From NCBI GenBank assembly GCA_963631715.1, contig CAVGRL010000006.1, positions 6,794 through 70,793 of the forward strand: DNA of 64,000 nt, given 5' to 3'. This DNA comes from Bacteroidaceae bacterium (lineage in GTDB: Bacteria > Actinomycetota > Coriobacteriia > Coriobacteriales > Eggerthellaceae). How positions within the stretch are numbered: position 1 is the stretch's first letter; every line of letters begins with the position of its first letter. The position numbers were made by a program, and so were the translations under genes. Shown here piece by piece: positions 26,450 to 64,000 of this stretch. The notes under the pieces were generated by a model. It was not told the origin of the DNA, did no database searches, and worked only from the letters and a program-made list of their open reading frames with translations.

Positions 26450-27877
26450 GTGCCGATTTCAACCAACCGTCGCATGGTTGCGCTTGCCGCGGCGTTTTCC
26501 CTTACGCTTTTCAACAGCACCGCCATGCTGCTTTCCGCCGGCGGATCGCTTTTCGGGACCCTCGCCGATTTCGGCAAGTCGGACATGTTCAATGCGCTCG
26601 TCTTTCCTTCGCTGGCCGCACTTCTTGTCGCAGGGGTTGCTACCGGCCTTCGAGGGATGTGGAAGCTCCCTTCGCTGGACCGAAGCCTCCATGCGGCGAT
26701 GATCGTGGCGGCGTTTGCCGGTGGAGCCTTTTTCATCGCCATGCTGGCATGCCCTTCGGAAGTGGCGCTCGCATGTGCGGTCGCCGCAGGACCATGCTGC
26801 GCAATCGCCTACCTCTTGCAATTCATGGCCTGGAGCCGTCGCATGGCAGAACACGGCTTCAAAGACGCGCTCTGCACCATCTCGCTTTCGGGCGCGATCG
26901 CCGCACTGGCCGCGCTTGTCTTGTTCTCGTTCTCAAACGCGCTCGTAATGGCCTCGGGCTTTTGTCTCACCCTTGCCGCCGGAAGCATCGCCGCATATCT
27001 AGCGGTTCGACCCTTAAATGGCAAAGAGCCTGAAACGAATAGCGATTCCGAAAACGAAAGCGCCCAAAAAACTCGCAACCTTTGGCCCCTTTTCGCCGGA
27101 TGCCTCATATGTGTGTTCACCATGCTGCTCATGTGGCAAGGGGAAAACGACTCAATCGTGCGCTCTTCTTCGGCCTTCATCACGCAGGGCACATTCGCGG
27201 GCTTCATTGCCTGCTCGCTGTGCATCTGCGGCATTGCGGCCATGCATCCCGAAGAAAACGCTCTCAGGCAAGCGCTTACGACGCTGTGCCCCCTTTTCGC
27301 CGCGCTGCCAATCGTTCCATGCATCGTTGCATTCGATCCCGACGAATTCCTCGGAACCATATACGGCGTGCTCACCGGAGTAGGATTCTCGTATTTCATG
27401 GCGGCGCCCATTGCTTCGTTTTGTTGCACGGCGAAAGCTGGCGATACGCGCAAGGTCTGGGGAATTGCGGCGATAACGCTCGCGGTAGGCGGCGCCTTTG
27501 GCCGCTTGGCGGCAATGATTTTGCCCCCGAGCGGAACAACGGCGCTCACGTTGGCACTGTTTCTCGCCTACCTCGTCGCACTCGCCTTGGTCCCAAGGGA
27601 GCGCGCAAAAAACCACGAAGAAGCCCCTCTTCCGCCGGAAACCGTCAACCCCCTTGATGCCCGATGCGAGGCCCTTTCGCAATCTTGGCAGCTCACCCCA
27701 AGGGAAAGCGAAGTGTTGCCCTTGCTCGCACGAGGTCACACGCAGCCGGCGATTGCCAAAGAACTGTTCTGCTCGCCCGAAACAATCAAGGTCCATGTTC
27801 GCCATATCTATGAAAAGGCGGGCGTGCATTCTCGCGACGAACTCATCGAGCTCGTCAACGAAATCCAGCCCAAATAG
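26450..27877 (+). CDS. Polytopic membrane LuxR-family transcriptional regulator
   Basis: GTG 26450 follows GAGGAGGG. About 400 aa of hydrophobic helices are followed by the GerE/LuxR HTH LTPRESEVLPLLARGHTQPAIAKELFCSPETIKVHVRHIYEKAGV. Confidence 0.85.
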   Translation: MPISTNRRMVALAAAFSLTLFNSTAMLLSAGGSLFGTLADFGKSDMFNALVFPSLAALLVAGVATGLRGMWKLPSLDRSLHAAMIVAAFAGGAFFIAMLACPSEVALACAVAAGPCCAIAYLLQFMAWSRRMAEHGFKDALCTISLSGAIAALAALVLFSFSNALVMASGFCLTLAAGSIAAYLAVRPLNGKEPETNSDSENESAQKTRNLWPLFAGCLICVFTMLLMWQGENDSIVRSSSAFITQGTFAGFIACSLCICGIAAMHPEENALRQALTTLCPLFAALPIVPCIVAFDPDEFLGTIYGVLTGVGFSYFMAAPIASFCCTAKAGDTRKVWGIAAITLAVGGAFGRLAAMILPPSGTTALTLALFLAYLVALALVPRERAKNHEEAPLPPETVNPLDARCEALSQSWQLTPRESEVLPLLARGHTQPAIAKELFCSPETIKVHVRHIYEKAGVHSRDELIELVNEIQPK

Positions 27878-27902
27878 GAAAAGCCCCCGAAGGGGCTTTT
27901 CC
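27878..27902. terminator. Bidirectional intrinsic terminator
   Basis: GGAAAAGCCCC-CGAA-GGGGCTTTTCC directly after the LuxR stop, between convergent genes. Confidence 0.75.
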
Positions 27903-27985
27903 TGTGGGAGGGAATGCATCGTGCAAAGCATGGGAGGGAAAGCTGCACGATGCCGAATTATCCGAATCGCGCTTCGCGCGCTTCT

Positions 27986-29881
27986 TTAGTCGACCGACTG
28001 GCCCGTGATGAGTTTGCCGGCAACGCGGCCATGCGTAACGGCCATGCCAATCGAATTGCCGGAAAACGGCGTGGTGTACTGCAATCCATAGCGGCCGCCG
28101 AGCGTATTTCCGGCGCAGTACAGGCCTTCGATGGCATTGCCATCTTTATCGACGACCTGCAAATCGCCATTGGTCTCGAGGCCCGCCAGCGTAACCAAGC
28201 TTACCGACATGGTTCCGGTATTGCCGCCGAACCCGCCGCCTTTCGCCGTGCCGAAGCCATAGAAGGGAGCTTCTTCGATCGGGGTCATGAGGCACGCATC
28301 TTTGCCGAAATCGGTATCTTTGCCGGCATGGCACATCTCGTTGTAGTGCTCGATAGACGCGAGGAAGTTCTTCTTGCTCTGACCCTCGTAGCCCAGCATG
28401 TCGGCGAGCTTGTCGAGCGTGGAAGCCTTGTACACGGTAGATGCCATGCGCTCGGCGACGGTGCACATGCGCACAGTACCGCCCTCGGCATTGTCGACTT
28501 CGATGGCTTCCATGTCTTCTTCCATCTCGGTGAAGTATTCTTTTCGACCGAAGTTCGCGCAGCCATGGTCGAGCGAGGAGTATTTCAGCGTCTCGCGCCA
28601 ATTCTGGTCGGTAACGCCCGTGAAGCCACCGCGCGGCTGGCGCAAAGCCTCGGCCATGGAGTTGCCCGTGGCCGCTTCGTTCATGAAGCGGTTGCCTTCG
28701 GAATTCATCCACATGAACGGCGAAGAGCCCCACGGTCCCGATGCGCCGCCGCCGAAGCTCATGGCGCCACGGGGGCCCGCTTCGATAAAGCCACCAGCCC
28801 AGCAGCCCATTTTGTGGCCATCGCCCGTGCAATCGGTCTGACCCAGAAGCGAGCTTTCGTCAAGGCCGGCGCGCTCGTTGCGCTCGCGATACTCGGTCAA
28901 AAGGTTCCACGTCATGTCGGTATTCGCACCGAAGTCGCCCGTGCACAAGATAACGCCAAGGCTTGCGTTGTATTTCACGTAGCCGTCGGAGCCCTTCGCA
29001 ATGACGCCGGTCACTTTCCCGGAGTCGTCTTGCACGAGCACGGTAGCGGTCTGCTCGAAATGCCATTCGGCACCGAGCTCCTGGCTCTTCAGGATAGAGA
29101 ACTGCTGCACTTCGTCGAGACGCGAGAAAGCAGCCTCGCCCTCGTAGGGCTCGTGGTTGATGGTTCCCATGAATTGCACAACGCACGGCCACGTTTTGAA
29201 CCCGCCGCGATACAAGGGGTATTCGACCTCTCCATCAAGCACCAAGCCGGGCTGCTGAATGCAGATTTGGCTATCGGCAATGGGGCTTTCGTCGGAATTG
29301 TCGTAAGAAACGTTCTTGATGCGGCTATCGGGCCAGTTCACAAGGCCGACCATATGGTCGAACGTCTCGCCGGAGTTCGCCACGAACTTGCGGATGACTT
29401 CGGTGTTCACGCGGCCGCCGGCGCGCATGGCGAATTCCTCCACGATTTCGCCCTCGTCATAGGGGCCAAAACCTCGGTCGATGAGAAACTGGGAGTTCAC
29501 ATGCCCAATATCTTCGCCCTTTACCTTGCGCGAAGCCTCGGGAGACTTCTCGATAACGGCCACTTTCGCGCCGCCCTCAGCCGCGGCAAGCGCGGCCTGG
29601 ATGCCAGAGTTGCCGCCGCCGCATACGACGACGTCGCAATCGATGGTCTCGACGATGTCGGAATCGGCGATTTCAGGCTTTTCTCCCAGCCAGCTCGAAG
29701 TGCCGCCAACATAGCCGGAAGTGCTCTCTTGCGCAGCCGCCGTAGACGTGCTGCTCGATTTGGAGCTTGAGGATTGCGGCGAGCATGCCGCAAGCATCGA
29801 ACCCGCAAGAGCGCTCACGCCCACAAGGCCGGCGCCTTGCAGGAAATTGCGGCGAGAAACGCCGCTGTTTTGGTTTTCCAT
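27986..29881 (-). CDS. Tat-exported, probably lipid-anchored FAD-dependent reductase (fumarate reductase/flavocytochrome flavoprotein family)
   Basis: ATG 29881 follows GGAGGG. Twin-arginine motif SRRNFLQGAG, lipobox-like LAAC, dinucleotide fold DVVVCGGGNSGIQAALAAAEGGAKVAVIEK, and C-terminal GLYCAGN...GNS motif. Confidence 0.85.
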   Translation of the reverse strand: MENQNSGVSRRNFLQGAGLVGVSALAGSMLAACSPQSSSSKSSSTSTAAAQESTSGYVGGTSSWLGEKPEIADSDIVETIDCDVVVCGGGNSGIQAALAAAEGGAKVAVIEKSPEASRKVKGEDIGHVNSQFLIDRGFGPYDEGEIVEEFAMRAGGRVNTEVIRKFVANSGETFDHMVGLVNWPDSRIKNVSYDNSDESPIADSQICIQQPGLVLDGEVEYPLYRGGFKTWPCVVQFMGTINHEPYEGEAAFSRLDEVQQFSILKSQELGAEWHFEQTATVLVQDDSGKVTGVIAKGSDGYVKYNASLGVILCTGDFGANTDMTWNLLTEYRERNERAGLDESSLLGQTDCTGDGHKMGCWAGGFIEAGPRGAMSFGGGASGPWGSSPFMWMNSEGNRFMNEAATGNSMAEALRQPRGGFTGVTDQNWRETLKYSSLDHGCANFGRKEYFTEMEEDMEAIEVDNAEGGTVRMCTVAERMASTVYKASTLDKLADMLGYEGQSKKNFLASIEHYNEMCHAGKDTDFGKDACLMTPIEEAPFYGFGTAKGGGFGGNTGTMSVSLVTLAGLETNGDLQVVDKDGNAIEGLYCAGNTLGGRYGLQYTTPFSGNSIGMAVTHGRVAGKLITGQSVD

Positions 29882-30039
29882 GGTTCCCTCCATGCATTCA
29901 ACCCTTCTTCGCTCGGCATCGCATCCGGCGAAGCTTGCAAGGCAAAACATAGGGAAAACCGTCCGCGAACCCATCACCGCAAGCGGGTATTTCGCATAAC
30001 CCGAACCAGGTTATTTTTCGTTTTCGCAGGTGAAATGCG

Positions 30040-51610: not shown

Positions 51611-52822
51611 TTACGCCAGCGCTTGCTCCAAATCGGCAAGCAAGTCTTCCACGTCCTCGATGCCCACCGAAAGGCGCAGCAGGCGTTCATCAATACCCAA
51701 CGCATCGCGCATTTCGGTAGGAATAGATCCGTGCGTTTGCACCAATGGGTATGTCATAAGCGACTCGGCGCCGCCCAAGCTCTCTGCGAACAAGATGAGC
51801 TTCGCCCGCTCGAGCGCATCGACCGCACGCTGCTTCGTATCGGTCTTAAACGATATCATGGCACCGAAGCCCGTCGTTTGTCGAAGCGAGCGCGCATAGC
51901 CCGGATGATCGGGGTCGCCCACATAATGCACTTCGGCCACATGCGGGTGCTTCTTCAGAAAACTCGCGATACGCAGCGCATTTTGCTCTTGACGGCGCAG
52001 GCGCACACCCAACGTCTTCAAGCTGCGAATCATAAGCCAGCTATCGAATGGGGCCAGCTGGTTGCCTTCGCTCATCGCGGCATTGAACAGCGGCTCGATG
52101 AGTTCTTCGTCGCGCACGATTAAAAAACCCGACAGCACATCGTTGTGGCCGCACAGGTATTTCGTGCCGCTATACACCACGATATCGGCGCCGAAATCGA
52201 ACGGACGCTGGAAATACATGGTGAGAAACGTGTTGTCCACGGCAAGCAGCGCACCGTGGGCGTGCGCCGCATCGGCAACGGCGGCGATGTCGGCCACCTT
52301 CATCATGGGATTTGTGGGCGTTTCCAAAAACACGAGGCGCGTATTGGGACGAAACGAGGCTTCGAGCTGGTCGGCATCGGTAAGGTCGGCATAGGTGAAT
52401 TCCAGGCCATATTGGGCGAATACCTGCGAAAACAAGCGATACGTGCCGCCGTACAAATCGTCGCTCACTACGGCATGATCGCCCGATTTCATGAGTTTAA
52501 TCAGGCACGATATAGCCGCCATGCCGCTAGAAAACGCCATGGCCTTCTTGCCACCCTCGAGCGCCGCGATCGTGTTTTCGAGCTCCAGTCGCGTGGGGTT
52601 TCCGCAGCGCGAATAGCAATAGCCCGTCGATTGGCCAAACGCTGGGTGCGCAAACGTGGCCGATTGGTAAATGGGGAAACTGATGGATCCAGTCTCTTTG
52701 TCGACTCCGTGGTAGCCACGCACGGCCACCGAATCGATGCGCAAGCCCGAACATCGATCCTCGTCGATGCCCAGCAACCCATCGATTTCTTGCGCCATTG
52801 CCTTGAAGCTCGAATCGTCCAT
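51611..52822 (-). CDS. Cys/Met-metabolism PLP-dependent enzyme (cystathionine gamma-synthase / beta- or gamma-lyase family)
   Basis: 403 aa. YSRCGNPTR and SGTKYLCGHNDV (PLP lysine) motifs. Confidence 0.8.
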   Translation of the reverse strand: MDDSSFKAMAQEIDGLLGIDEDRCSGLRIDSVAVRGYHGVDKETGSISFPIYQSATFAHPAFGQSTGYCYSRCGNPTRLELENTIAALEGGKKAMAFSSGMAAISCLIKLMKSGDHAVVSDDLYGGTYRLFSQVFAQYGLEFTYADLTDADQLEASFRPNTRLVFLETPTNPMMKVADIAAVADAAHAHGALLAVDNTFLTMYFQRPFDFGADIVVYSGTKYLCGHNDVLSGFLIVRDEELIEPLFNAAMSEGNQLAPFDSWLMIRSLKTLGVRLRRQEQNALRIASFLKKHPHVAEVHYVGDPDHPGYARSLRQTTGFGAMISFKTDTKQRAVDALERAKLILFAESLGGAESLMTYPLVQTHGSIPTEMRDALGIDERLLRLSVGIEDVEDLLADLEQALA

Positions 52823-53003
52823 GCGCCGCCCTTTCGTCCCATGTTTTCTTGGCGACGCACTAGCCTACCCGAACGAAGAAACATTCCGGGGCGAGATTCC
52901 TAGTTGCTATATAGGTTTTGCAGAAACTCAGCGTGCTGTTTTGGCGATAGCGGCCGCAAACAAACTCGCCAGCGGCCGCCATACGAACGCGCAGATTGGG
53001 CCC

Positions 53004-54275
53004 CTAGCCCACCACGACGCCAAGGCCATCGGGAATCACGGCCACCTTGGCATCTGGGCCCTTCAGCTGAAATGCGACTTCAAGCGCCTCATCGACGGTA
53101 TTCGCGGGCGTCATATGCATATCGCGAATCATCTGGTGATCGCACAGGTCGGTTACCATAATCACCTGATGGTGCGACAAGATCCGCGAAAGAATCTGGC
53201 TCTCCCATTGATCTGCCAGCGTGTCTTCCTTGGGGCGTTCAACGCATTCGCGCTCAAAGGCCGCAGGGTCACTCTCGGAAATGCTCTTGTAGAAGCCTTC
53301 GCCACCGTGGCCGTCGGCGCAACCCGCGACTTCGATAATCACACCGCCTTCGGGCAGCGTGGCTTCGGCCGCACACATGCCCTTTACCGACTGGTAGATA
53401 TTTTGATCGAGCGGATAGCCGCCATTGGTCGTGATAGCGATATCGCAAGCCACGGGAGAAACTCGGCATAGCTCGCCCACGAATTCGCAACCTGCCGCAT
53501 GAGCAGCCGATTTATCACCCGCAAAAGCAGCGATAACGTCGTGATTCCCATCTATTACCACATTCAAGATAAACGCCAAGTTGGCCATCTCGGCTGCAGC
53601 GAGCATATCCTCGTGCATGCGATTGTTTCGCAAATTGCCCGCGCGGCTCGCCCCATCGTTGATGAATTGGCCGTTGTGGTTGTACATGATGGTTTTATAC
53701 GACGCGACACCCGGCAGCACCGACTTGCGGCCGCCCGAGAAGCCCGCGAAGAAATGCGGCTCAATGAATCCTTCGGAAATCAGCAGGTCAGCCTCGGCGG
53801 CCACCTTGTTGATGATGCATTCCCCGCCCGACGGCAACGTGCCAATCTTTTTCATCGCCGCGTCGTCTTTGGAAATGTGCATGACTATTTCCTCGTTCGC
53901 CACAATGTCGGCGCCGTATTTGGCAACGAGCTCGTCGTGCGTCGAGGGCCGATGCATGCCCGTTGCGATCAAAATGCGCACGCGCGCATCGGGAGCCGCC
54001 GTATGAATGCGCCGAAGCAAGATGGGCATAGTGATATGCGAAGGCACCGGGCGCGTATGGTCGGAGCTGATAATCACGATATCGCGTTTGCCCTGGCACA
54101 ATTCTTCGAGCTTCGGCGACCCATGCGGTGCATCAAGGGCGTCCTCAACGAGCTCGGTTTGCGATTTCGCAGGAACGTATTCGCCTTGGCGGCCCGCAAG
54201 CACGCCGGCGAGGTTTTCATCGGGAACGCGCACCGTCATGGTTCGGCGATCGTAGGGAACTTCCATTTCGAACAT
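53004..54275 (-). CDS. LarA-family (nickel-pincer-dependent lactate racemase-like, DUF2088) protein
   Basis: ATG 54275 follows AAAGGAAA. MFEMEVPYDRRTMTVRVPDENL ... ISSDHTRPVP ... ATGMHRPST pattern of LarA homologues. Confidence 0.8.
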   Translation of the reverse strand: MFEMEVPYDRRTMTVRVPDENLAGVLAGRQGEYVPAKSQTELVEDALDAPHGSPKLEELCQGKRDIVIISSDHTRPVPSHITMPILLRRIHTAAPDARVRILIATGMHRPSTHDELVAKYGADIVANEEIVMHISKDDAAMKKIGTLPSGGECIINKVAAEADLLISEGFIEPHFFAGFSGGRKSVLPGVASYKTIMYNHNGQFINDGASRAGNLRNNRMHEDMLAAAEMANLAFILNVVIDGNHDVIAAFAGDKSAAHAAGCEFVGELCRVSPVACDIAITTNGGYPLDQNIYQSVKGMCAAEATLPEGGVIIEVAGCADGHGGEGFYKSISESDPAAFERECVERPKEDTLADQWESQILSRILSHHQVIMVTDLCDHQMIRDMHMTPANTVDEALEVAFQLKGPDAKVAVIPDGLGVVVG

Positions 54276-54459
54276 AGGGTTTCCTTTCGACGCAAGCATT
54301 GAGTTTTTCCGAAGCCTTGCGAACTGGGCATTTTTGAATAGCCCACGAAGAGGCCGAAAGCCCGAGAACTGCTCGATCGCAAGCATCGCACCGCACTTGG
54401 CGCATTACGAAGCGCGGCCCGAACCTCAGCAAAAGGCTCGGGCCGCAATTGGCGTTTGC

Positions 54460-55878
54460 TTAGCTGCACACCTTGCCGGGGTTCAAGATGCAATTCGGAT
54501 CGAACACGCCCTTGATACCGGCCATCAAGGAATATGCCGTATCGCCCACCGACTCGCGCAGGTATTCCTTCTTGGCATGGCCAATGCCGTGCTCGCCAGA
54601 AACCTGACCGCCAAGCTCGGCGCATTTCGCATACGCGGCATGCATGACGCGCGTCGACTTCTCGAGGAACGCGTCTTTATCGATGTTGTTGCCGCAGCAA
54701 TAGATATGCAGATTGCCGTCGCCCGCGTGGCCGAACGAGCGGATAAGCACGTCGTTTTCGACGCCCGTATTGTGGATGAAGCCCAGGAACTCGGCGATTT
54801 TGTCAACAGGAACAACCACGTCCATCTCGTCGAGGTGCTGCGTTTCCGCCTCGATAACCGTGAGAAACGCGCTGCGCGCGGCCCAGACCGACGCCTTGTC
54901 GGAAGGATGGTCGATAACCAACGTATCGAAAGCGCCCGTTTCATCGGCGATTTCCGCCAGGGTCTCGGCGCGCTGGAAAATCTCATCGGCATCATTGCCA
55001 TCGAGCGTGACCAGGATATATGCGCCGCACTCATTGCCGTCGACCACCGTGGGAATGATATGGTTGCCGGTATATTCCGCCGACGAATCGACGATATCGC
55101 GCTCCATGAATTCGATGGACTGAGGATTCAAGCCGGCCAGCTTGATCTTCGGAACGGCAGAAATAGCCGTCTCGATGTCGTGGAACGACAGGATAAAGCT
55201 CGTGTCCTCTTTCGGGTTGGGAATGAGCTTCATCGACAGCTCGGTGATAACGCCCAGCGTGCCTTCCGAGCCGATCATCAGGTGCAGCAAGCTGTAGCCC
55301 GAGCTGGTTTTCGTGACCTCGCGACCCAAGCGCAGCACTTCGCCATTCGGAAGAACAACCGTAAGCGCCAACACGTAATCGCGCGTGGTGCCATATTTCA
55401 CCGCACGCATACCGCCGGCATTCGTGGACACATTGCCGCCGACAGAGCCGGTCTTCTCGCCCGGATCAGGCGGATACATGAAACCATGCTCGATAGCGTC
55501 GGCCGCCAAATCGCACAGGCGAACGCCCGGCTGCACGCGAACGAACAAGTTGTTCATGTCGTATTCGATAATCTGGTCCATGCGCATGGTACACAACACG
55601 ATGCCACCCGCAAGCGGCGTGCTGCCGCCCACCAGGCCCGTACCCGCACCGCGCACCGTAACGGGGATGTTATTCGCATTCGCGAGTTTCATGATGGCCG
55701 AAACTTCTTCGGTTGACGCGGGAAGCGCCACGACATCGGGCATGCGCGTGCCATAAATTGGCATCTCATCGTGCCCGTAATCTTCGTTGATGTCATCCCC
55801 CGTGAGGCAATTGTCGGTGCCCACGATGTGCTCAAGCTCGGCGATGAGCTCCGGGGTAAGTTCGTTGTACTCGGCCAT
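54460..55878 (-). CDS. FAD-linked oxidase (GlcD / D-lactate dehydrogenase family)
   Basis: 472 aa. FAD_binding_4-like VTVRGAGTGLVGGS and C-terminal GEHGIGHAKKEYL. Confidence 0.85.
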   Translation of the reverse strand: MAEYNELTPELIAELEHIVGTDNCLTGDDINEDYGHDEMPIYGTRMPDVVALPASTEEVSAIMKLANANNIPVTVRGAGTGLVGGSTPLAGGIVLCTMRMDQIIEYDMNNLFVRVQPGVRLCDLAADAIEHGFMYPPDPGEKTGSVGGNVSTNAGGMRAVKYGTTRDYVLALTVVLPNGEVLRLGREVTKTSSGYSLLHLMIGSEGTLGVITELSMKLIPNPKEDTSFILSFHDIETAISAVPKIKLAGLNPQSIEFMERDIVDSSAEYTGNHIIPTVVDGNECGAYILVTLDGNDADEIFQRAETLAEIADETGAFDTLVIDHPSDKASVWAARSAFLTVIEAETQHLDEMDVVVPVDKIAEFLGFIHNTGVENDVLIRSFGHAGDGNLHIYCCGNNIDKDAFLEKSTRVMHAAYAKCAELGGQVSGEHGIGHAKKEYLRESVGDTAYSLMAGIKGVFDPNCILNPGKVCS

Positions 55879-56241
55879 GGCTCCCTTTCCGTGCGAATGC
55901 GAATCACGACGAACCGGCTGTTCACGCCGGGACGCCCGTTAATAACGTATTTCTTTCCGTTGCGTTCAGCGAACTCTAACATACTAAAGCGCGAATGCAA
56001 TTCCCTGGCGAAGCCATGCTATCAAGCGGCATTTTGCGGCGGCGAACGGCAGGTTGCCAGCCGCAAGCGGCCGCCCCACCTGAAAAAAAAGAGGGCCCCG
56101 CCGCATATATGCAGCAGGACCCAGGAAGCGAAGGGGTGGCCGCCCGCTCAAGGGAGGAGAAACGGGCGGCCTAGAGGGGAAATAGGGGGTTGTCAAGGTG
56201 TCGGCGACGCGAGCCAAATGCGGGACGTGCCGCCGATTGAT

Positions 56242-56997
56242 TTACTTTGCCTCGGGCAAGCCGGCGGCATCGACGAGGTCTTGGCTTTCCCAATATGTCA
56301 GCCAACCATCAGGCACAACAGCATCGGCGTGGCATTCGGTGCAATACATGACCGACGCGCGATGCGCCTTGTGGCACGTGCTGCACTTTTGCTCGCCATG
56401 GCGGTCGGAATGCGGGTTTACCACGCCCATCCATTCCGTCTTCTTCTGCAAGTCGGCACGCGTGAACGTATGGCACGTCTCATTCATGCAGAACTCATCG
56501 GAATTCTCGAGCCCGCGCGCCTCCACGAGCTGCGTTACCGTACGCTCGCCAAGCGTGCTGTCGTAGTTGCCCGAAACCCATTCCAAGCCTTCGGTTATCT
56601 GTTCGCCAATCTGGGGAACATGGCAATCCATGCAGGTCTTGCCCACCTGCCCGTGCAGGGCGGCGAGCATGGCGGACGAATCGGCCACTTCGTTGCCCCA
56701 CTTGTCGGTGCCGGCCTCGCCGGGGGTCGCCTCGTACGTCGGCAGGTACGAATCCATGGGATCGTGGCAAATCGCCGCGCAGAAGCTCGGCTGCTCATGC
56801 CACACCATAAGGCCCGCGGCGGCCAGCACAACCACGGCCGCCACAACGCAGGCGGTAATGCCGCGACGCTTGCGCTTCGACGCTCGATCGGCAGACGCGG
56901 ACACCTCGGCATCGGGTGTTTCGACGGCGGCTTCATCGACGGGATTGTCCTGAATCTCGCCGATGGCCTCGAGTTTTGTTTCTTCGGAATTGCTCAT
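56242..56997 (-). CDS. Membrane-anchored multihaem cytochrome c (NapC/NirT- or c3-like)
   Basis: One N-terminal TM helix (ITACVVAAVVVLAAAGLMVW). Five haem-attachment-type motifs: CAAICH, CMDCH, CMNETCH, CSTCH, CTECH. It starts 30 nt after the reductase stop. Confidence 0.8.
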   Translation of the reverse strand: MSNSEETKLEAIGEIQDNPVDEAAVETPDAEVSASADRASKRKRRGITACVVAAVVVLAAAGLMVWHEQPSFCAAICHDPMDSYLPTYEATPGEAGTDKWGNEVADSSAMLAALHGQVGKTCMDCHVPQIGEQITEGLEWVSGNYDSTLGERTVTQLVEARGLENSDEFCMNETCHTFTRADLQKKTEWMGVVNPHSDRHGEQKCSTCHKAHRASVMYCTECHADAVVPDGWLTYWESQDLVDAAGLPEAK

Positions 56998-57027
56998 TTC
57001 GCAGTCCTTACCTTAGCCCGCGGCCAG

Positions 57028-58671
57028 CTAGGCGATACCCAGCACGTTGCGCACGGCGATGCGACCGAATGCACAGCATTCGCCCAGATTGCCGCCGCCG
57101 TTGTACATATCGCACCACACACTGCCAAATTCGCCCGCCGAATACAGGTTGGGAATGGGCTCGCCGTTCAGGTCGATAATCTGCGCGCGCTCGTTGCGGC
57201 GCGGACCGCCGTCGGTGTTGAGCAACGTCGTGGAGCAGTGACATGCATGGAACGGCGCCTTCTTGATGGGCGTCAGCGTCCAAGCCGGGCGATGAAATGC
57301 CGGATCTTCACCGGCCTCGCAATATTGGTTCCACAAGTCGACGGTGCGCGTAAGCTCGTCGGTCGGCAAGCCAGCCTTCTCGGCAAGCTCGGCAATCGAA
57401 TCGGCGCGGAAGCCAAACCCGTCGCTCGACGGCTCGAAGTTCGGGGCCGTCTCGTAAGCCATCATCTTCTGGTAGCCCTCGTCGTCAAGGATGTACCACG
57501 TAGTCTTCGGCATGGGCAGATGCGGCCATTCGCCGCCGAACTGCATATGGCCGTGACGGCTGCCCACGTTGATCGACAGCGGATTGTCGTCGATAACGTC
57601 CCAATCGTGCTCGTGGTCGCTATCCCAGTCCATGAAGAAGCGGCGGCCGTTCACCGCAACGGTGATGCCGAACTGCTTCGGCGTACGCATGGTGACCTCG
57701 TCGCCTTCAATCGGCGACACGCTGGTCCAAAAGCCTGCGCAGCTGTTCATGTGCCACATGTCGGCGCCGATGCGGCTGCAGATATAATGGCCGTCGCCGG
57801 TGTTCATGCGGCCGGCGATACAACGTGCCGTGGTGCCCGACAGGTAGTCGCCGCGCATCTGCGGGTTGTTCTCGAAGCCACCGCACGTCATGATGACGCC
57901 CTTGTTCGCCTTCACATACACCGTTTTACCCTCGTAGGTGTACACGCCGCCGAGAACGGCTTTGGTCTCGGGGTCTTGCACCAGCGCAGTGAGCGGCGCG
58001 TTCAACTTATGCGTGATGTTGTCGTTGTTCGCGAACGCATGGTTCACGAATTTGATCACGTGATCGTATTCTTCGCCTTTGAAGTACAATACGCCCAGGT
58101 TGTAGCCATGCGGCAGCTCGGCGTATTCGGGGTAGCACGTCTCACCCGTACCCTTGTGGAAATGCTCGCTGAAGTCCACGTCTTCGGAATTGAAATCGGG
58201 CAGGCTTTCAATCCAGGCACGATTCTCATGGATGCCCTCGGCGAAAGCATCGAGCACGGCATCGGGGGTATTGTCCATCTCGCCGCGCAGCTCATAGAGG
58301 TACTGGCGGAAACCTTCGGCGTGTTCGTCGTCGGTCCACAGCACGCGACCGGCAGAAAACGGGCTATCGCCCTGGCCGAGCGTCATCGCGCCTTTCTCAA
58401 GCAACAAGGCCTTAGCACCGTTGCCTTCGGTAGCGACGGTCGCTGCGGCAGCCTGCCCCGCAAGGCCGCCGCCCACGATGAGCACATCGGTCTCTTCGTC
58501 CCAATCGATTTCCGCAACGGAGTTCGCCGCGTTGTTCTTGTTTTCGGCCGTACCTTTCGCGCCGCAGCCGCCAAGCATGGCAGCGGCCGCGCCAGCGAAC
58601 ACCGTGGCACCCGCAGCTTTGATGAAGTTGCGGCGGCTGGCGTTCAGATTCAGGCTTTCATTGAGGTCCAT
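57028..58671 (-). CDS. Tat-exported FAD-dependent reductase (fumarate reductase flavoprotein family), lipobox-like
   Basis: ATG 58671 follows GAAGGAGGAAGAG. SRRNFIKAAG twin-arginine motif, LGGC, DVLIVGGGLAGQAAAA dinucleotide fold, and C-terminal NLYSAGE...GGNLG. Confidence 0.85.
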   Translation of the reverse strand: MDLNESLNLNASRRNFIKAAGATVFAGAAAAMLGGCGAKGTAENKNNAANSVAEIDWDEETDVLIVGGGLAGQAAAATVATEGNGAKALLLEKGAMTLGQGDSPFSAGRVLWTDDEHAEGFRQYLYELRGEMDNTPDAVLDAFAEGIHENRAWIESLPDFNSEDVDFSEHFHKGTGETCYPEYAELPHGYNLGVLYFKGEEYDHVIKFVNHAFANNDNITHKLNAPLTALVQDPETKAVLGGVYTYEGKTVYVKANKGVIMTCGGFENNPQMRGDYLSGTTARCIAGRMNTGDGHYICSRIGADMWHMNSCAGFWTSVSPIEGDEVTMRTPKQFGITVAVNGRRFFMDWDSDHEHDWDVIDDNPLSINVGSRHGHMQFGGEWPHLPMPKTTWYILDDEGYQKMMAYETAPNFEPSSDGFGFRADSIAELAEKAGLPTDELTRTVDLWNQYCEAGEDPAFHRPAWTLTPIKKAPFHACHCSTTLLNTDGGPRRNERAQIIDLNGEPIPNLYSAGEFGSVWCDMYNGGGNLGECCAFGRIAVRNVLGIA

Positions 58672-59017
58672 CTCTTCCTCCTTCAAGGGGACCTTGGTGC
58701 GTCGCGTGCGCCATGCGCTCCGATTTCGCGACGCCCGGTTTGTATCGCCCGGACGCAAGCAAGCTCCTACGCATCCCCCAACGGAGCCTCCATGCTCGCC
58801 GACGACCCAAGCGTTATCCAACGGCCCCAACACTAGCCAGCGCGAATGCGTTTCGCGCCGTCCGAAGAGGGTTGTTTTCGGGCGAAAATACGGCAAATTG
58901 CGTCCAACCCGAAAGGGGTTACCTATCGTTTTCCCAGTTCAAATCAATGCTATCGATATATGATGAAACGAGTTCCTCCGTTGGACGTGGTACCATATCG
59001 CACCGAGGAGGAACGCA

Positions 59018-60466
59018 ATGAAAGAAACGAACCCTGCCGATAATCGCGGCGATGCGCGGTCGCACCAAACGACGCATGCAGAGGGCCAGCCCCAAAACAC
59101 CTGGGGGATTCCGTCCATCGGAATCGCATGCACACTCGCATGGGCGTTTCTTATCAATGCCGCGGGCGAAGGCGCGCCGAGCCAGCAGACCGCATGGCAG
59201 CTTTCCTACGCCGTCCTTTCTGTCGCGGTCGTCGCGCTCGGATTTGCGGCAAGTAAACGCGCCGCCACGCTGAAGTCGCGCGCAATCGGCATCAGCGTCG
59301 GCGCCCTTGGCTGCATTGCCTCGTTGGCGCTTTCTGCGGCATTCCTTTTACCCGCCATGGCGTGGCTGCAGGTTCCCGCATCCATCGTGTGCGCTTGCGT
59401 GCTTGGTTGGCTGTATTTGCAATGGGGGCTGTTCTATGCACGCATCGGATGCCGCACTGCAGTCGGCTGCTTGTTTGCGGCCAATATTGCCGGATCGCTC
59501 TTGAAGACGCTCGTCCACTTTTCGCCCTTCGCATTTGCGGGCGCCATTACCTGTATCTTGCCCATCGCGTCGGTCGCGCTTTGTCGCGTCGCGCTCGCAC
59601 GCCTCTCGGCAAACGCGCATTCAATGGAGCAGCCGACCGTGGTGTTCGAATCGCACAACCTGCGCGGCCTTTGGAAGGTGGGGGCCGCCATCGCCGCATT
59701 CAGCTTCGTAACGGCGTTTCTCATCGCGCGCTTCTCGGGCAACCAAAGCGCCGTGCCCGCGATCGATTTCCTGGCAGCGCGCCTCGTGGAAATCGCCATT
59801 TCCAGCGTGGTGCTGCTCCTGGTTTTGAAGCTAGAGAAATCGTTCAACTTCTCGGAATTGTGGCGCATCGCGCTTCTAGCGCTTGCGGCCGACATGCTCT
59901 GCCAAGCAGCATTGCCCCAGGTCACCATTTTGCGTTGCGTTGAAAGCAGCGTATGGGATTTGGTGGTGCTGTTCACGTGGCTCACGCTTGCCGATATCGC
60001 GCGGCATTCCAGCATGCCCACGCCGCTCGTTTTCGGCATCGGCTGGGCCTGCTACACCGCGCCGTTCACTATAGGATCGGCCGCTTCGGCGCTCGCACCC
60101 ATGGGCACGCTCAATGCTGCCACAGCGCTCGCACTTATGTTCGTGCTGCTGATTGTGGCCGCCTTCTGTTTGGAGTTGCGGGACCAAGACACCAAATGGA
60201 TTTTCGCGGAACTTTCGGGCGAGAGGTCCAGCGCGCCCACCGATTTCGCGACCCTCGACGATCGCTGCCAAGCCATCGCCGCCGAGCGTGGGCTTACCCC
60301 GCGCGAACTCGAGGTTATGCAACTGCTCGTAAAAGGCCGCACTAAAGCGTACATCGCCGAAACGTTGTACCTCACCGAAAACACCGTGAAGGGCCACGCC
60401 CGCCACATTTACACCAAGCTCGATGTCCACAGCAAACAAGAGCTTCTCGACCTGGTTGAGCGATAG
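59018..60466 (+). CDS. Polytopic membrane LuxR-family transcriptional regulator
   Basis: ATG 59018 lies 6 nt after GAGGAGG. Many hydrophobic helices are followed by LTPRELEVMQLLVKGRTKAYIAETLYLTENTVKGHARHIYTKLDV. Confidence 0.85.
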   Translation: MKETNPADNRGDARSHQTTHAEGQPQNTWGIPSIGIACTLAWAFLINAAGEGAPSQQTAWQLSYAVLSVAVVALGFAASKRAATLKSRAIGISVGALGCIASLALSAAFLLPAMAWLQVPASIVCACVLGWLYLQWGLFYARIGCRTAVGCLFAANIAGSLLKTLVHFSPFAFAGAITCILPIASVALCRVALARLSANAHSMEQPTVVFESHNLRGLWKVGAAIAAFSFVTAFLIARFSGNQSAVPAIDFLAARLVEIAISSVVLLLVLKLEKSFNFSELWRIALLALAADMLCQAALPQVTILRCVESSVWDLVVLFTWLTLADIARHSSMPTPLVFGIGWACYTAPFTIGSAASALAPMGTLNAATALALMFVLLIVAAFCLELRDQDTKWIFAELSGERSSAPTDFATLDDRCQAIAAERGLTPRELEVMQLLVKGRTKAYIAETLYLTENTVKGHARHIYTKLDVHSKQELLDLVER

Positions 60467-60594
60467 GCCGCGAGCAACATCGCCAACAATCAATCGATTT
60501 ATACGCGCCCGCCAGCCTACCTGGGGCGCCGAAGCCCTTCGAGAGCGCGAATTGCGCTCGCGCATAGGATAGAAATCGCAACGGCCACTAGGAT

Positions 60595-62148
60595 CTATCG
60601 GGCACGCACGTCATTTGCGACGCTACCCAACCCGCGACGGTCATCCACAAAATCGAGCAGTTCTTGGCGGTTGGCAACGCCGCACTTCGCGTAAATGTGG
60701 CGGATGTGCGTGTTCACCGTGCTGGCCGAAATGAAAAGCTCATCTTGGATGCGGGCAAGCGTGCGTCCGCGAGCAACGCTCGGCAAAATTTCCGATTCGC
60801 GCGGCGTCAAACCGAATTCGGCGCTGATTCGCTCACAGACCTCTTCGAGCGAAATCTCCGAACGAACGACCGAGCCCAACGGGACCTCAGGCTCATCCGA
60901 TTGTCCGGTTGCCCCGCTCGATGCGAAATCGGCATTTTCGCAAGGCGCAAGCCCCTCAGAAGATTTTTCGACAACATCCGCCTCTTTACGCACGGAAGCG
61001 TTTTCGGTGGAGACGGGCAGGGATTTCTTCGAGATGAGCAAAAAGTCGGCCTCGGTAAAGAAGAACACGTAGCCCACCAGGGCACACGCCGCCAAAACGA
61101 CGCTGCACAGCATGACAGACGTCTTGGAAACAAGGAAAAGCGCGCTCGCGATGCCCGCAAATTCACCTGCATACAAAACCCCGAACGTGGCAATGCACTT
61201 GCGCCATGGCGAGCCGCCAAGCGCCCAAGAGGCCAGCATAGCCCGAGCGATAAGGCAGCATGCAAAACATTGCATACCGACGAAAGCAAGGGGGGTCGCA
61301 ATCGCGATATTTTCTCGGCCGAAAGCAAGCAGGATGCTCGACATAAGAATGAAGACGAACGAAATGCGGTAGAGAAAGCGGGCGGCAGCAACATCGGCGA
61401 TTCGGGCCATGGCGACCATCGCAATGCACACCGCCAAACCCGACAACGACAACATGGCATCGAGCGCAATGCTCTCGTCGCCAAACACATGGGCGGCGCT
61501 GTAGTTGCGCATCATGCCCATGATGCAGCCGAAAAAGAAAATATAAACGAAGTTGCGATATTCCAGATGCCGACCCACCTTCCCAAGGGGTCGAAATGAA
61601 GTTTTTCCAAAAGCGGCGTCACCTTGCAAAAACGCCAGCGCGGCAAACGAAACCACGGGGCACAAGACCATCGCGACAGAAAACGAATCGTTGCCGATAA
61701 GCACGAACGCGAAGCTTGCGATAAAAGACAACGCGAACGCAATTCCCGCCTCAATAAGCGAACCTGTAACAGTCTCGCGAGAAAAGACATCGAGCCAGGC
61801 AATGAACAGCATCGCTGAACCGAACCCCACAAGAGCACCGCTTGCCAGCGTTGGAATGAAACCAGCCGCAACCGGAGCCATGCAAAGCGAGCCAGCGATG
61901 GCCATTGCGCAAGCAACGACAAGCACGGCCTTGCTGTTCACGAATCGAGGAGCGCCTTCGCGCGAAAAGAAAAGCGCCACGGCAAACGCCAGCACAACAA
62001 ACACGAGCGACGACGTGAGCCCATCGAATTGCGCCTGGGCCGTATCGGCCGCGTTGGCGAATGGCAGGCTGCTGAAAAAGACGATGTTCGAATACAAGCG
62101 GTCAAACGCCATGCCGCCGATGCGCACCGCACGCTCTGGTAGTTTCAC
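60595..62148 (-). CDS. Polytopic membrane LuxR-family transcriptional regulator
   Basis: GTG 62148 follows GGAGGGGG. Hydrophobic N-domain of about 380 aa, a linker, then LTPRESEILPSVARGRTLARIQDELFISASTVNTHIRHIYAKCGV. Confidence 0.85.
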   Translation of the reverse strand: MKLPERAVRIGGMAFDRLYSNIVFFSSLPFANAADTAQAQFDGLTSSLVFVVLAFAVALFFSREGAPRFVNSKAVLVVACAMAIAGSLCMAPVAAGFIPTLASGALVGFGSAMLFIAWLDVFSRETVTGSLIEAGIAFALSFIASFAFVLIGNDSFSVAMVLCPVVSFAALAFLQGDAAFGKTSFRPLGKVGRHLEYRNFVYIFFFGCIMGMMRNYSAAHVFGDESIALDAMLSLSGLAVCIAMVAMARIADVAAARFLYRISFVFILMSSILLAFGRENIAIATPLAFVGMQCFACCLIARAMLASWALGGSPWRKCIATFGVLYAGEFAGIASALFLVSKTSVMLCSVVLAACALVGYVFFFTEADFLLISKKSLPVSTENASVRKEADVVEKSSEGLAPCENADFASSGATGQSDEPEVPLGSVVRSEISLEEVCERISAEFGLTPRESEILPSVARGRTLARIQDELFISASTVNTHIRHIYAKCGVANRQELLDFVDDRRGLGSVANDVRAR

Positions 62149-62189
62149 CGGTCCCCCTCCATGGCCAGCTTCTTAGCACGTCGAGTATA

Positions 62190-62257
62190 GCAAATCATAG
62201 TAATTTGCGATGCCGTCTGAACTGGGCAAACGCGATATCGTTATTATTTGCGATGCC
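62190..62257. promoter_or_regulatory. Candidate LuxR operator(s): 12-bp exact direct repeat, the first copy inside a 19-bp palindrome
   Basis: ATTTGCGATGCC at 62203-62214 and 62246-62257 (43 bp apart). GCAAAT-N7-ATTTGC at 62190-62208. GCAAAC-N14-ATTTGC at 62226-62251. All lie in the 175-bp divergent region between the LuxR gene and the reductase gene. Confidence 0.4.
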
Positions 62258-62323
62258 CTCGATACGCTTCTCAACGTACTTTTGAGTACGCATTGCTCAC
62301 ACGAAGAAGGGAAGAGGGAAACC

Positions 62324-64000
62324 ATGGAGCATACCGATTTCTCGCGTCGTAGCTTCCTGAAAGGCGCAAGCCTTGCAGGCCTGACAGCGGGCATTCTGGG
62401 CGCAGCCGAACTGGCCGCCCCGCGCGCTGCAGTAGCGGCCGAGGGCGCCGACGCCGCAAGCCTGAACGACTATCAAAAGATATTCGGCGAGAGCACGAAC
62501 TACATCCCCGTGCAGAAAGCCGAATGGGATCAGCTCGATGGCTTTGTTGCCTACGACGCCAAGGAATTCAAAGATTCCGACATCTCCCGCACCGACGAGT
62601 GCGACTTCCTGGTCATCGGCCAAGGCGTCGGCGGTACCATCGCCGCGCTTAAGGCGGCCGACGAGGGCGCAAACGTAATTGCCCTTGAAAAGATGAACCG
62701 CGGCCGCAACACGTGGGAGTCGGTCGGCGGTTACAACACAAAGCTACAGCAGGAAATAGATAACATTCCCGACCCGGCAGAATACGTCGAAGCAATCATG
62801 CGCTCTTCGTACTGGCGCGCTCGCCCCGATGTGGTGTGGGGCTTCGTGAATCAGTCGGGCGAGGCGATTGACTTCATGAACGACATGCTGCAGAAGGCCG
62901 GCAAAGGCGTAAGCCTCTACAGCTCCGTGCAGAAAGATAACGGCTACGGCTTCGACACCATCCAGGCCGAGCATAAGCTGAAGTTCCCCGATGGCGTCGA
63001 TAAAAAGTGGAACACCTGGTGGCGCGGCCCTGTTGCGTTCGATTCGCTCGAAACTACCCAAGCGACGTATAGCAACCTCGACGTACGCTACAACACCGCC
63101 GCTGTACAGCTGACCAAAGACGAATCGGGCCGCGTGACGGGCGCCATTGCCAAAGATGCCGACGGCTACTACAAAGTCGAAGCCAAAAACGGCGTGCTGC
63201 TTGCAACGGGTGGCTACGAATCGAACCCCGGCATGATGGAATCGTGGTGCCGCCCCGAAGACTACCAGGGCTGCTGCGTATACGCCCCCAATTCCGGCAA
63301 TACTGGCGACGGCCACATGATGGGCCTTGCCGCAGGAGCGCAAATCGACCCCTTGCCCCACACGCTCATGGTATTCCGCAGCGGTCTGCCCGGTCGCGTC
63401 ATGGATGCATCCACGGTGTCGAAATGCTTCACTTCCAGCATCTGGGTCGACCATAAGGGTCGTCGTTTCGTAAACGAAAAGCTCCCTCACAATTGCGTGG
63501 CAAACGCCATTTCCGAGGCCGGCATTTCTGGCAAGCCGGTGTGGTTCGTCTTTGACCAAGCGATTGTCGATGGAATCAAAGACACCACGGGCCAGCTTGC
63601 CGCCGACGTCGAAGATGGCAAGCAGCGCGGCGAACTCGTACAGGCCGACACGCTTGAAGGTCTCGCTGAAGCCATGGGCGCCGACGTCGACACGTTGGTC
63701 GAAACCGTCGCCACCTGGAATAGCTACTTCGACGATGAAACACCGACCGACCTCATGTTCCGCCGAAGCCTCACCAGCGCAGCAACGAAGCTTGCCACGG
63801 GTCCGTTTTATGCCTGCAAGCACACCAGCAAAGTACTGTGCAGCGGAAGCGGCCTGATCATCGATGAGCACGCCCGGGTGCTCGATGCCAACGAGGAAGC
63901 TATCGAAGGCCTGTATGCCACGGGCAACGTCTCGGGTGGCATGTTCTCGATTTCCTACCCGCGCCACCTGCCCGCAACCTCGGTTGGCCGCGCCGTGACC
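62324..64000 (+). CDS. Tat-exported FAD-dependent reductase (fumarate reductase flavoprotein family), 3'-truncated by the window end
   Basis: My own translation from ATG 62324 (GAAGGGAAGAGGGA upstream) gives 559 codons with no stop. MEHTDFSRRSFLKGASLAGL (Tat), DFLVIGQGVGGTIAALKAADEGANVIALEK (dinucleotide fold), GLYATGNVSGG near the end. It is absent from the supplied track because it has no in-window stop. Confidence 0.85.
   Translation, partial: MEHTDFSRRSFLKGASLAGLTAGILGAAELAAPRAAVAAEGADAASLNDYQKIFGESTNYIPVQKAEWDQLDGFVAYDAKEFKDSDISRTDECDFLVIGQGVGGTIAALKAADEGANVIALEKMNRGRNTWESVGGYNTKLQQEIDNIPDPAEYVEAIMRSSYWRARPDVVWGFVNQSGEAIDFMNDMLQKAGKGVSLYSSVQKDNGYGFDTIQAEHKLKFPDGVDKKWNTWWRGPVAFDSLETTQATYSNLDVRYNTAAVQLTKDESGRVTGAIAKDADGYYKVEAKNGVLLATGGYESNPGMMESWCRPEDYQGCCVYAPNSGNTGDGHMMGLAAGAQIDPLPHTLMVFRSGLPGRVMDASTVSKCFTSSIWVDHKGRRFVNEKLPHNCVANAISEAGISGKPVWFVFDQAIVDGIKDTTGQLAADVEDGKQRGELVQADTLEGLAEAMGADVDTLVETVATWNSYFDDETPTDLMFRRSLTSAATKLATGPFYACKHTSKVLCSGSGLIIDEHARVLDANEEAIEGLYATGNVSGGMFSISYPRHLPATSVGRAVT

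Follow-up and report, generated by a model that had tools for sequence, protein, structure and literature searches.

Two adjoining, independently inherited modules, each probably a membrane sensor with an exported flavin reductase, in an Eggerthellaceae genome

At one end of a 64,000-nucleotide stretch of a gut Eggerthellaceae contig (GenBank assembly GCA_963631715.1, contig CAVGRL010000006.1, positions 6,794 to 70,793; the whole of this stretch is referred to below as the window), genes for two exported flavoproteins lie among genes for a membrane cytochrome and two polytopic LuxR-type regulators. An earlier note, made from the sequence of the window, had described these genes as an island of reductase modules with the architecture of the cardiac glycoside reductase (cgr) locus of Eggerthella lenta, and had left open whether either flavoprotein is the reductase Cgr2. 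Is the locus a cgr operon, a pair of ordinary fumarate or urocanate reductases, a single pathway, or something else? Very probably it comprises two independent, self-contained modules, each consisting of a sensor and an extracytoplasmic flavin reductase, of a type that has expanded in the Eggerthellaceae. The modules and their genes, whose products include flavin adenine dinucleotide (FAD) enzymes exported by twin-arginine translocation (Tat) and regulators with many transmembrane (TM) helices, are as follows.

56093-60466: module 1, comprising LuxR1, the divergent flavoprotein 1, the cytochrome and a terminator
56242..56997, minus strand: Cgr1-type membrane-anchored multihaem cytochrome c, 251 amino acids
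57028..58671, minus strand: flavoprotein 1, a Tat-exported FAD enzyme with a lipobox, PF00890 (fumarate reductase / KstD) superfamily, 547 amino acids
59018..60466, plus strand: LuxR1, 482 amino acids, 10-12 predicted TM helices and a C-terminal GerE helix-turn-helix
60595-64000+: module 2, comprising LuxR2 divergent from flavoprotein 2
60595..62148, minus strand: LuxR2, 517 amino acids, approximately 10 predicted TM helices and a C-terminal GerE domain
62324..64000, plus strand: flavoprotein 2, a Tat-exported PF00890 FAD enzyme without a lipobox, 559 of approximately 572 amino acids, cut by the end of the window

A check of the open reading frames (ORFs) in the window bore out the existence and coordinates of the five genes listed in the earlier note. 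The gap between flavoprotein 1 and the cytochrome is exactly the 30 nt it had given, and the divergent pairing of flavoprotein and LuxR genes holds for both pairs. The LuxR1 and LuxR2 genes are convergent, 128 nt apart. As the trio of module 1 (LuxR1, flavoprotein 1 and cytochrome) recurs in approximately 20 independent genomes, and module 2 in five loci, this arrangement goes beyond chance.

The conservation of module 1 was studied by scanning a profile of flavoprotein 1 homologues over one genome per species, which gave 80 loci. Wherever flavoprotein 1 is at least 74% identical and sequence is available on both sides, an orthologue of LuxR1 lies divergently upstream (45-95% identical, L001-L022), and these loci, with the exception of L018 and L020, have a Cgr1-type cytochrome (56-99% identical) directly downstream. 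The loci keeping the complete trio include those of Senegalimassilia, an Ellagibacter metagenome-assembled genome (MAG) and Candidatus Aveggerthella. The nearest named relatives of flavoprotein 1 itself, at 82-84% identity, come from Senegalimassilia anaerobia JC110 and 'Eggerthella sp. AM16-19' (84%), the Ellagibacter MAG and Candidatus Aveggerthella; in S. anaerobia JC110 the orthologue of module 1 is locus L003. A cluster gathered around flavoprotein 1 at 90% identity or more has 119 members, and many metagenome contigs in ENA and Logan carry close relatives of the two flavoproteins. Contigs carrying module 1 (L002, L004-L007, L009, L014, L022 and others) also occur in 'cleanbin' assemblies, in MAGs bearing labels such as Subdoligranulum, Prevotella, Akkermansia, Butyrivibrio, Agathobacter and Methanomethylophilaceae; these labels from outside the Eggerthellaceae probably reflect binning contamination or mislabelling.

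The adjacency of the two modules, with their convergent regulator genes and a 12-nt motif, ACTGGGMAAACG, common to both divergent regulatory regions, might be taken to mean that they form one co-regulated and co-inherited island serving a single pathway. A 3' remnant of the small cytochrome gene characteristic of module 2, found beside module 1 in the closest relative (L002, 5277-5444, minus strand), would fit this. The distribution between genomes makes it very unlikely. Over 52039-56058 and 60641-63995 the window is collinear with locus L082, which in place of module 1 (56059-60640) has three unrelated genes, encoding a 154-amino acid protein, a metallophosphoesterase and an MscS-type channel. 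Module 2 is found without module 1 in L082-L086, and in none of the other fetched genomes (approximately 20) is there an orthologue of LuxR2 or flavoprotein 2 beside module 1. Furthermore, the two flavoproteins are only 24% identical, and LuxR1 and LuxR2 are alike in their DNA-binding domains only. Because L082 has other genes at the site of module 1, and module 2 flanks module 1 nowhere else, the two modules are independently inherited cassettes that happen to adjoin. Hence the 'island' of the earlier note is right as to its content of reductase modules, but as a term claims too much unity for them.

The two flavoproteins share their general design. Flavoprotein 1 starts at an ATG following an AAGGAGG ribosome-binding site, carries the Tat motif SRRNFIKA and the lipobox LGGC at its N-terminus, and matches Pfam FAD_binding_2 with E = 6e-31; it therefore combines the PF00890 catalytic domain with an export signal, as is characteristic of the respiratory-like flavin reductases of the Eggerthellaceae. 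Flavoprotein 2 gives a stronger FAD_binding_2 match (E = 5e-50) and has an SRRSFLK motif, with a Pfam TAT_signal match of 19.4 bits that is below the cut-off of 22.7; approximately 12 of its 570-572 amino acids, at the C-terminus, are beyond the end of the window.

Both regulators have a GerE/LuxR domain (PF00196) at the extreme C-terminus (E = 7e-16 for LuxR1 and 5.6e-14 for LuxR2, the latter starting at a GTG after a GGAGG ribosome-binding site), preceded, by hydropathy count, by 10-12 TM helices in LuxR1 and 10 in LuxR2; the same method gives 10-11 for Cac3, the regulator of the cgr locus. In this they resemble DadR, HcdR and CadR, 10-12-TM LuxR proteins that act as substrate-responsive activators of neighbouring reductase genes (Dong et al. 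2022, PMC9734109): the polytopic N-terminal region and C-terminal GerE domain are the same, the gene adjoins a reductase gene presumed to be under its control, and the TM domains have strongly diverged while the DNA-binding domains remain similar. The difference is that DadR, HcdR and CadR control molybdopterin catechol dehydroxylases, whereas LuxR1 and LuxR2 adjoin flavoproteins and are presumed regulators. Such pairings are common in E. lenta, where 74 of the 83 transmembrane LuxR proteins have 10-12 TM helices and 50 of the 83 adjoin flavin enzymes (PMC9734109), and where the electron acceptors of 64 reductases induce the corresponding genes, which directly adjoin regulators of this kind (bioRxiv 10.1101/2022.12.26.521950). 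By analogy, LuxR1 and LuxR2 are presumed to be the substrate sensors and activators of modules 1 and 2 respectively, and both modules would be substrate-inducible, as are these characterised relatives (PMC9734109; bioRxiv 10.1101/2022.12.26.521950). Indirect support for an activator role comes, in the case of LuxR1, from its co-conservation with the reductase and from conserved boxes in the intergenic region.

The cytochrome of module 1 has a single N-terminal hydrophobic or TM segment (residues ~44-69, by hydropathy) and five haem motifs: CX3CH at 73, CXXCH at 122, CX4CH at 170, CXXCH at 205 and CXXCH at 219. All five are invariant or nearly so, with at least 97% conservation among 121 homologues. 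With this single anchor and conserved motif set it is a Cgr1-type protein, and it matches Pfam Cytochrom_c3_2 as well as the NCBIfam Cgr1 model NF051471, of which it covers positions 3-203 of 204. As its score on this equivalog model, 323.6 bits, is just under the cut-off of 340, it is a close member of the Cgr1 family rather than an assured equivalog. Two of the motifs are non-canonically spaced, the CX3CH (CAAICH, residues 73-78) and the CX4CH (CMNETCH, residues 170-176), and both are invariant in the 121 family members; they also occur in the Cgr1 sequence recovered here, although published descriptions of Cgr1 mention CXXCH only. Approximately 120 nt past the stop codon of the cytochrome gene lies a strong hairpin that appears to mark the end of the flavoprotein 1-cytochrome operon, and to which the only matches in an Rfam scan of the module 1 region, all below threshold, were made.

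56093..56122, minus strand: intrinsic-terminator-like hairpin, 13 pairs of which 9 are G-C, followed by T8

Whether these components make module 1 a cgr operon, that is, an orthologue of cgr2 and cgr1 reducing digoxin and other cardenolides, was addressed by recovering the cgr locus itself from human-gut metagenome contigs (L093, L094 and others) with the published cgr2 primer (PMC5953540). The forward primer with its ATG had no match in genome contigs; without its first two bases it located cgr2 in metagenome contigs. The recovered protein of 560 amino acids, starting MEYGKCRG and ending LEPWE, can be identified as Cgr2 because C82, C158, C187, C265, C327, C535 and Y333 all match the published numbering. 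The order of the locus is Cac4 flavoprotein (minus), Cac3 TM-LuxR (plus), one ORF (minus), Cgr2 (plus) and, after 9 nt, Cgr1 (plus), the last being 216 amino acids long with, as read by eye, the same five haem motifs as the cytochrome of the window. The cgr-like architecture proposed in the earlier note is thus sound: the components are the same, a Tat- and lipobox-bearing PF00890 flavoprotein is followed immediately by a single-TM multihaem cytochrome, a 10-12-TM LuxR is nearby, and in both places a LuxR gene is transcribed divergently from the gene of a second Tat flavoprotein. One difference in layout is that the LuxR gene of the cgr locus has the same direction as cgr2, with an opposite-strand ORF between them, whereas that of module 1 is directly divergent from its flavoprotein gene.

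The resemblance does not extend to the sequence of the reductase. In the alignments to Cgr1 and Cgr2 that the earlier note had proposed, identity between the cytochrome and authentic Cgr1 is 57.9%, whereas flavoprotein 1 is 27.7% identical to Cgr2 over 545 amino acids, no closer than to any other paralogue, and flavoprotein 2 is 23.9-24.3% identical to Cgr2 over 497 amino acids and 26% identical to Cac4; overall, the window flavoproteins show only 24-28% identity to Cgr2 and Cac4. Only one of the six key cysteines of Cgr2 is kept in flavoprotein 1 (C265, as C263), the others aligning with A74, A144, L192 and A312 or, in the case of C535, with a gap, as does Y333; at approximately 30% identity the exact columns are uncertain. 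Cgr2 has been reported from cgr+ E. lenta alone, its nearest homologues sharing less than 28% identity with it (PMC5953540), while orthologues of flavoprotein 1 are spread across several genera. Against the nearness of the cytochrome to the Cgr1 threshold stands the fact that Cgr1-type cytochromes are generic, with more than 400 homologues across Eggerthellaceae genera, in agreement with the general electron-transfer role published for Cgr1 (PMC5953540). At sequence level, therefore, module 1 is almost certainly not the cardiac glycoside reductase operon, and the question of whether either flavoprotein is Cgr2 can, on the same comparisons, be answered in the negative. The family of flavoprotein 1 does have four invariant or near-invariant cysteines of its own, C298, C451, C479 and C532, with C263 and C451 as the aligned counterparts of Cgr2 C265 and C459; the conserved cysteines might be ligands of a metal or of an Fe-S centre, for which Cgr2 offers a published precedent.

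An identity as ordinary fumarate or urocanate reductases, like Fcc3 or UrdA, is suggested by the matches of both flavoproteins to PF00890 and to the TIGR01813 flavocytochrome c subfamily model, and by the presence of Fcc3 and UrdA among the best matches in the PDB. There is common ground with these enzymes (PDB 1QJD, 6T85) in the two-domain FAD fold and in electrons arriving via c-type haems, although module 1 carries its haems on a second, membrane-anchored protein instead of fusing them to the flavoprotein, and identity is only approximately 20%. The catalytic and substrate-binding Arg and His residues, however, have been replaced in both flavoproteins. In flavoprotein 1 the equivalents of Fcc3 H504 and R545 are N485 and Y523, each invariant throughout its family; in flavoprotein 2, H365, R402 and H504 correspond to V350, H389 and L505, and R545, by ungapped extension of the alignment, to Y545. 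Scores of 128-171 bits are likewise far under the curated cut-off of 285. Such an identity is accordingly exceedingly improbable, and with the Arg/His set kept in neither protein the earlier note's reading of them stands. By their sequences, then, both flavoproteins are distinct from Cgr2 and from the fumarate and urocanate reductases, and the earlier note's description of the modules as uncharacterised agrees with the low identity to Cgr2 and with the failure of either to reach any curated NCBIfam equivalog cut-off.

A further parallel is provided by the flavin reductases of Little et al. (bioRxiv 10.1101/2022.12.26.521950), in which reductase clades 2-4, those other than UrdA, have Tyr in place of the Arg that binds the substrate carboxylate, the same replacement as in the window flavoproteins. 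The Eggerthellaceae enzymes of that study (UrdA, CirA-D and CrdD) also share with them the PF00890 domain, the extracytoplasmic location and the adjacent transmembrane regulator, the difference being that module 1 has a dedicated Cgr1-type cytochrome. No sequence-level assignment of the window flavoproteins to any of the characterised enzymes of Little et al. could be made.

The direction of catalysis has also to be considered. When the AlphaFold2 model of flavoprotein 1 (mean predicted local distance difference test score 81.6) was searched with Foldseek, the best matches were 3-ketosteroid delta-1-dehydrogenases (KstD; template modelling score, TM-score, 0.65-0.68, 19-23% identity), followed by Fcc3 and UrdA (TM-score ~0.56-0.64) and cyclohexanone dehydrogenase, at approximately 20% identity; the clamp domain (residues ~309-386) has no sequence alignment to any solved structure. 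The top NCBIfam matches by E-value are likewise ketosteroid dehydrogenase models. It could thus be envisaged that the flavoproteins are physiological dehydrogenases, for instance KstD-like enzymes acting on steroids or cyclic ketones, which pass electrons to the cytochrome and then to menaquinone. This seems unlikely. The score on the KstD equivalog model is 147.5 bits against a cut-off of 789, a likeness at the level of the fold only; the characterised Tat-exported members from the Eggerthellaceae, namely Cgr2 (PMC5953540), UrdA and the Cir enzymes (bioRxiv 10.1101/2022.12.26.521950), are reductive; and the anaerobic host would presumably have no obvious high-potential acceptor. The structural matches settle not the substrate but the fold and the general type of chemistry, in which a hydride is transferred to or from a C=C bond beside a carbonyl.

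How module 1 might be controlled is suggested by the region between LuxR1 and flavoprotein 1. Aligned across genomes, the intergenic regions of module 1 have diverged almost fully except for a shared core of approximately 110 bp, in which the motif CACCTGGGAAAACG, Box 1, Box 2 and a TAnnnT hexamer follow in that order. A generic search for inverted repeats in the intergenic regions missed these short boxes, which emerged only from the cross-genome alignment.

58927..58938, minus strand: motif ACTGGGAAAACG, 80 bp upstream of the LuxR1 start codon, kept in orthologues and shared with module 2
58906..58920, minus strand: Box 1, conserved palindrome and candidate LuxR1 operator, AACCCCTTTCGGGTT here, consensus CACCCGCTTCGGGT
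58860..58873, minus strand: Box 2, CCC-N-GGG palindrome-like candidate LuxR1 activator site, AACCCTCTTCGGAC here (degenerate), consensus CCCCAGCTGCGGGTGAAG
58830..58835, minus strand: candidate -10 hexamer TAGTGT of the flavoprotein 1 promoter, with TAnnnT conserved in orthologous intergenic regions

Box 1 lies 46-47 bp upstream of Box 2 in most orthologues, and its columns C32-C34, T37, C39, G40, G42 and T43 are invariant in 13 loci. The centre of Box 2 is approximately 43 bp upstream of the putative transcription start. In the candidate -10 hexamer A116 and T120 are invariant and T115 is conserved to at least 90% (alignment A2), and the promoter has no recognisable -35 hexamer. A palindrome such as Box 2, abutting the -35 position, is the layout expected of an activator-dependent promoter; that LuxR1 is the protein which binds the two boxes is our inference. 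A known RNA element or structured leader before flavoprotein 1 was considered and rejected, as the Rfam scan had no match above threshold and the 154-nt leader folds no better than its shuffles (z = -0.61).

Within the 64 kb, the exact motif shared by the two divergent regions is found at 58927-58938 (minus) and 62221-62232 (plus) and nowhere else. Both copies precede the start codon of a TM-LuxR gene by 73-80 bp and are oriented towards the flavoprotein gene, and the fetched loci have related copies, CTGGGnAAACG, between other LuxR and reductase genes. This sharing is better regarded as a lead than as a result.

A mechanism consistent with these data can be proposed. LuxR1 would sense a small molecule at the membrane and activate the divergent, -35-less promoter through the two conserved palindromic boxes. 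Flavoprotein 1 would be folded with its FAD in the cytoplasm, exported by the Tat pathway and anchored by its lipid to the outer face of the membrane. The five-haem, single-TM cytochrome, a relative of NapC/NrfH, would oxidise menaquinol and pass the electrons to flavoprotein 1; Cgr1 itself has been noted to resemble the NapC/NirT quinol dehydrogenases (PMC5953540). Flavoprotein 1 would then reduce an organic acceptor, most likely, because of its fold family, at an activated C=C bond (an enoate or enone). The same scheme may apply to module 2, with LuxR2, flavoprotein 2 and, as the partner in relatives, a small dihaem lipoprotein cytochrome.

Several points weigh against this reading of two sensor-reductase modules. 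For the genes of the window, induction, operator function, catalytic direction and electron path are all inferred, and the closest structural matches, the ketosteroid dehydrogenases, are oxidative enzymes. Both L018 and L020, MAGs in which flavoprotein 1 is 79% identical, keep the LuxR gene with no cytochrome match in their fetched flanks, and the same is true of the whole clade at 58-60% identity, which may mean that the cytochrome is not essential or that it is provided in trans. The count of the ACTGGGMAAACG motif is weak taken alone, with two found against 0.7 expected in the window at up to one mismatch. Koppel et al. observed that cardenolides gave no growth benefit to cgr2+ E. lenta (PMC5953540), so that the term 'respiratory' is not guaranteed for every member of the family.

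Module 2, although truncated by the end of the window, can be completed from its relatives. Orthologues of flavoprotein 2 (80-91% identity) always have a divergent TM-LuxR gene upstream and are always followed by a gene for a protein of 126-128 amino acids with a lipoprotein signal and two CXXCH motifs (L082 9837-10217, L084 9722-10108), for which no Pfam or NCBIfam family was found. Judging by L082-L086, the gene for this small dihaem cytochrome would lie just past the end of the window. The region between LuxR2 and flavoprotein 2 contains an exact 12-nt direct repeat, ATTTGCGATGCC, at 62203-62214 and 62247-62258, 44 bp apart, the core of which, TTTGCGATG, is conserved in four related loci. 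It also contains one of two sigma-70-like promoter matches, a number equal to the chance expectation.

62203..62258, plus strand: module 2 regulatory core, in which the repeats flank the motif ACTGGGCAAACG at 62221-62232, conserved in four loci (alignment A3)
62194..62221, minus strand: sigma-70-like promoter match before LuxR2, TTCAGA, 16 nt spacer, TATGAT, a consensus match only

A third pair of the same general kind is found elsewhere in the window, at 26450-29884. It consists of a TM-LuxR gene with a GerE domain and approximately 12 hydrophobic segments (26450-27877, plus) and a Tat/lipobox PF00890 flavoprotein gene (27986-29884, minus), which are tail-to-tail instead of divergent and have no cytochrome gene nearby. 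The three flavoprotein paralogues in the window are 24-26% identical to one another. Directly downstream of module 1, and outside the reductase modules, lie genes for a LarA-type lactate racemase homologue and an FAD-linked oxidase (GlcD / D-lactate dehydrogenase-like), at 53004-54275 (minus) and 54460-55878 (minus), a pair that is syntenic in L082. An ORF of 1021 codons at 55771-58836 (plus), antisense across the cytochrome and flavoprotein 1 genes, was rejected as a gene, being an artefact of high G+C content that overlaps real genes.

Taken jointly, the observations on module 1 permit a more far-reaching reading, which is put forward only tentatively and is on balance doubtful: that it is a horizontally exchangeable cassette of 4.6 kb directed at a gut metabolite, with the first operator for a 10-12-TM LuxR and with ACTGGGMAAACG as a family-wide signal. 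The contents of the cassette would be a sensor, a reductase, a dedicated quinol-oxidising cytochrome, a promoter and a terminator. Its ligand, because the fold of flavoprotein 1 is near that of KstD, is possibly an enone or a steroid-like compound. Were this so, the operator would consist of the boxes CACCCGCTTCGGGT and CCCCAGCTGCGGGTGAAG, approximately 46 bp apart and just upstream of a promoter without a -35 element, and ACTGGGMAAACG would be a cis-acting signal used across the family. To our knowledge, Box 1 and Box 2 would then be the first defined operator of the 10-12-TM LuxR family.

Systems of this kind have already been published, in the form of the 10-12-TM LuxR activators (PMC9734109), the arsenals of flavin reductases (bioRxiv 10.1101/2022.12.26.521950) and the cgr paradigm (PMC5953540). 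The novelty lies in two or three orphan enzymes and in a cassette conserved across several genera with a candidate operator, and the finding extends these published concepts without changing them. The Eggerthellaceae possess dozens of sensor-reductase modules, almost all of them orphan as to substrate; the characterised ones have drugs (digoxin), phenolics from the diet and host metabolites as their substrates. Module 1, being compact, present in several genera and equipped with an apparent promoter and operator, is therefore a convenient candidate for a reporter-based screen for its substrate.

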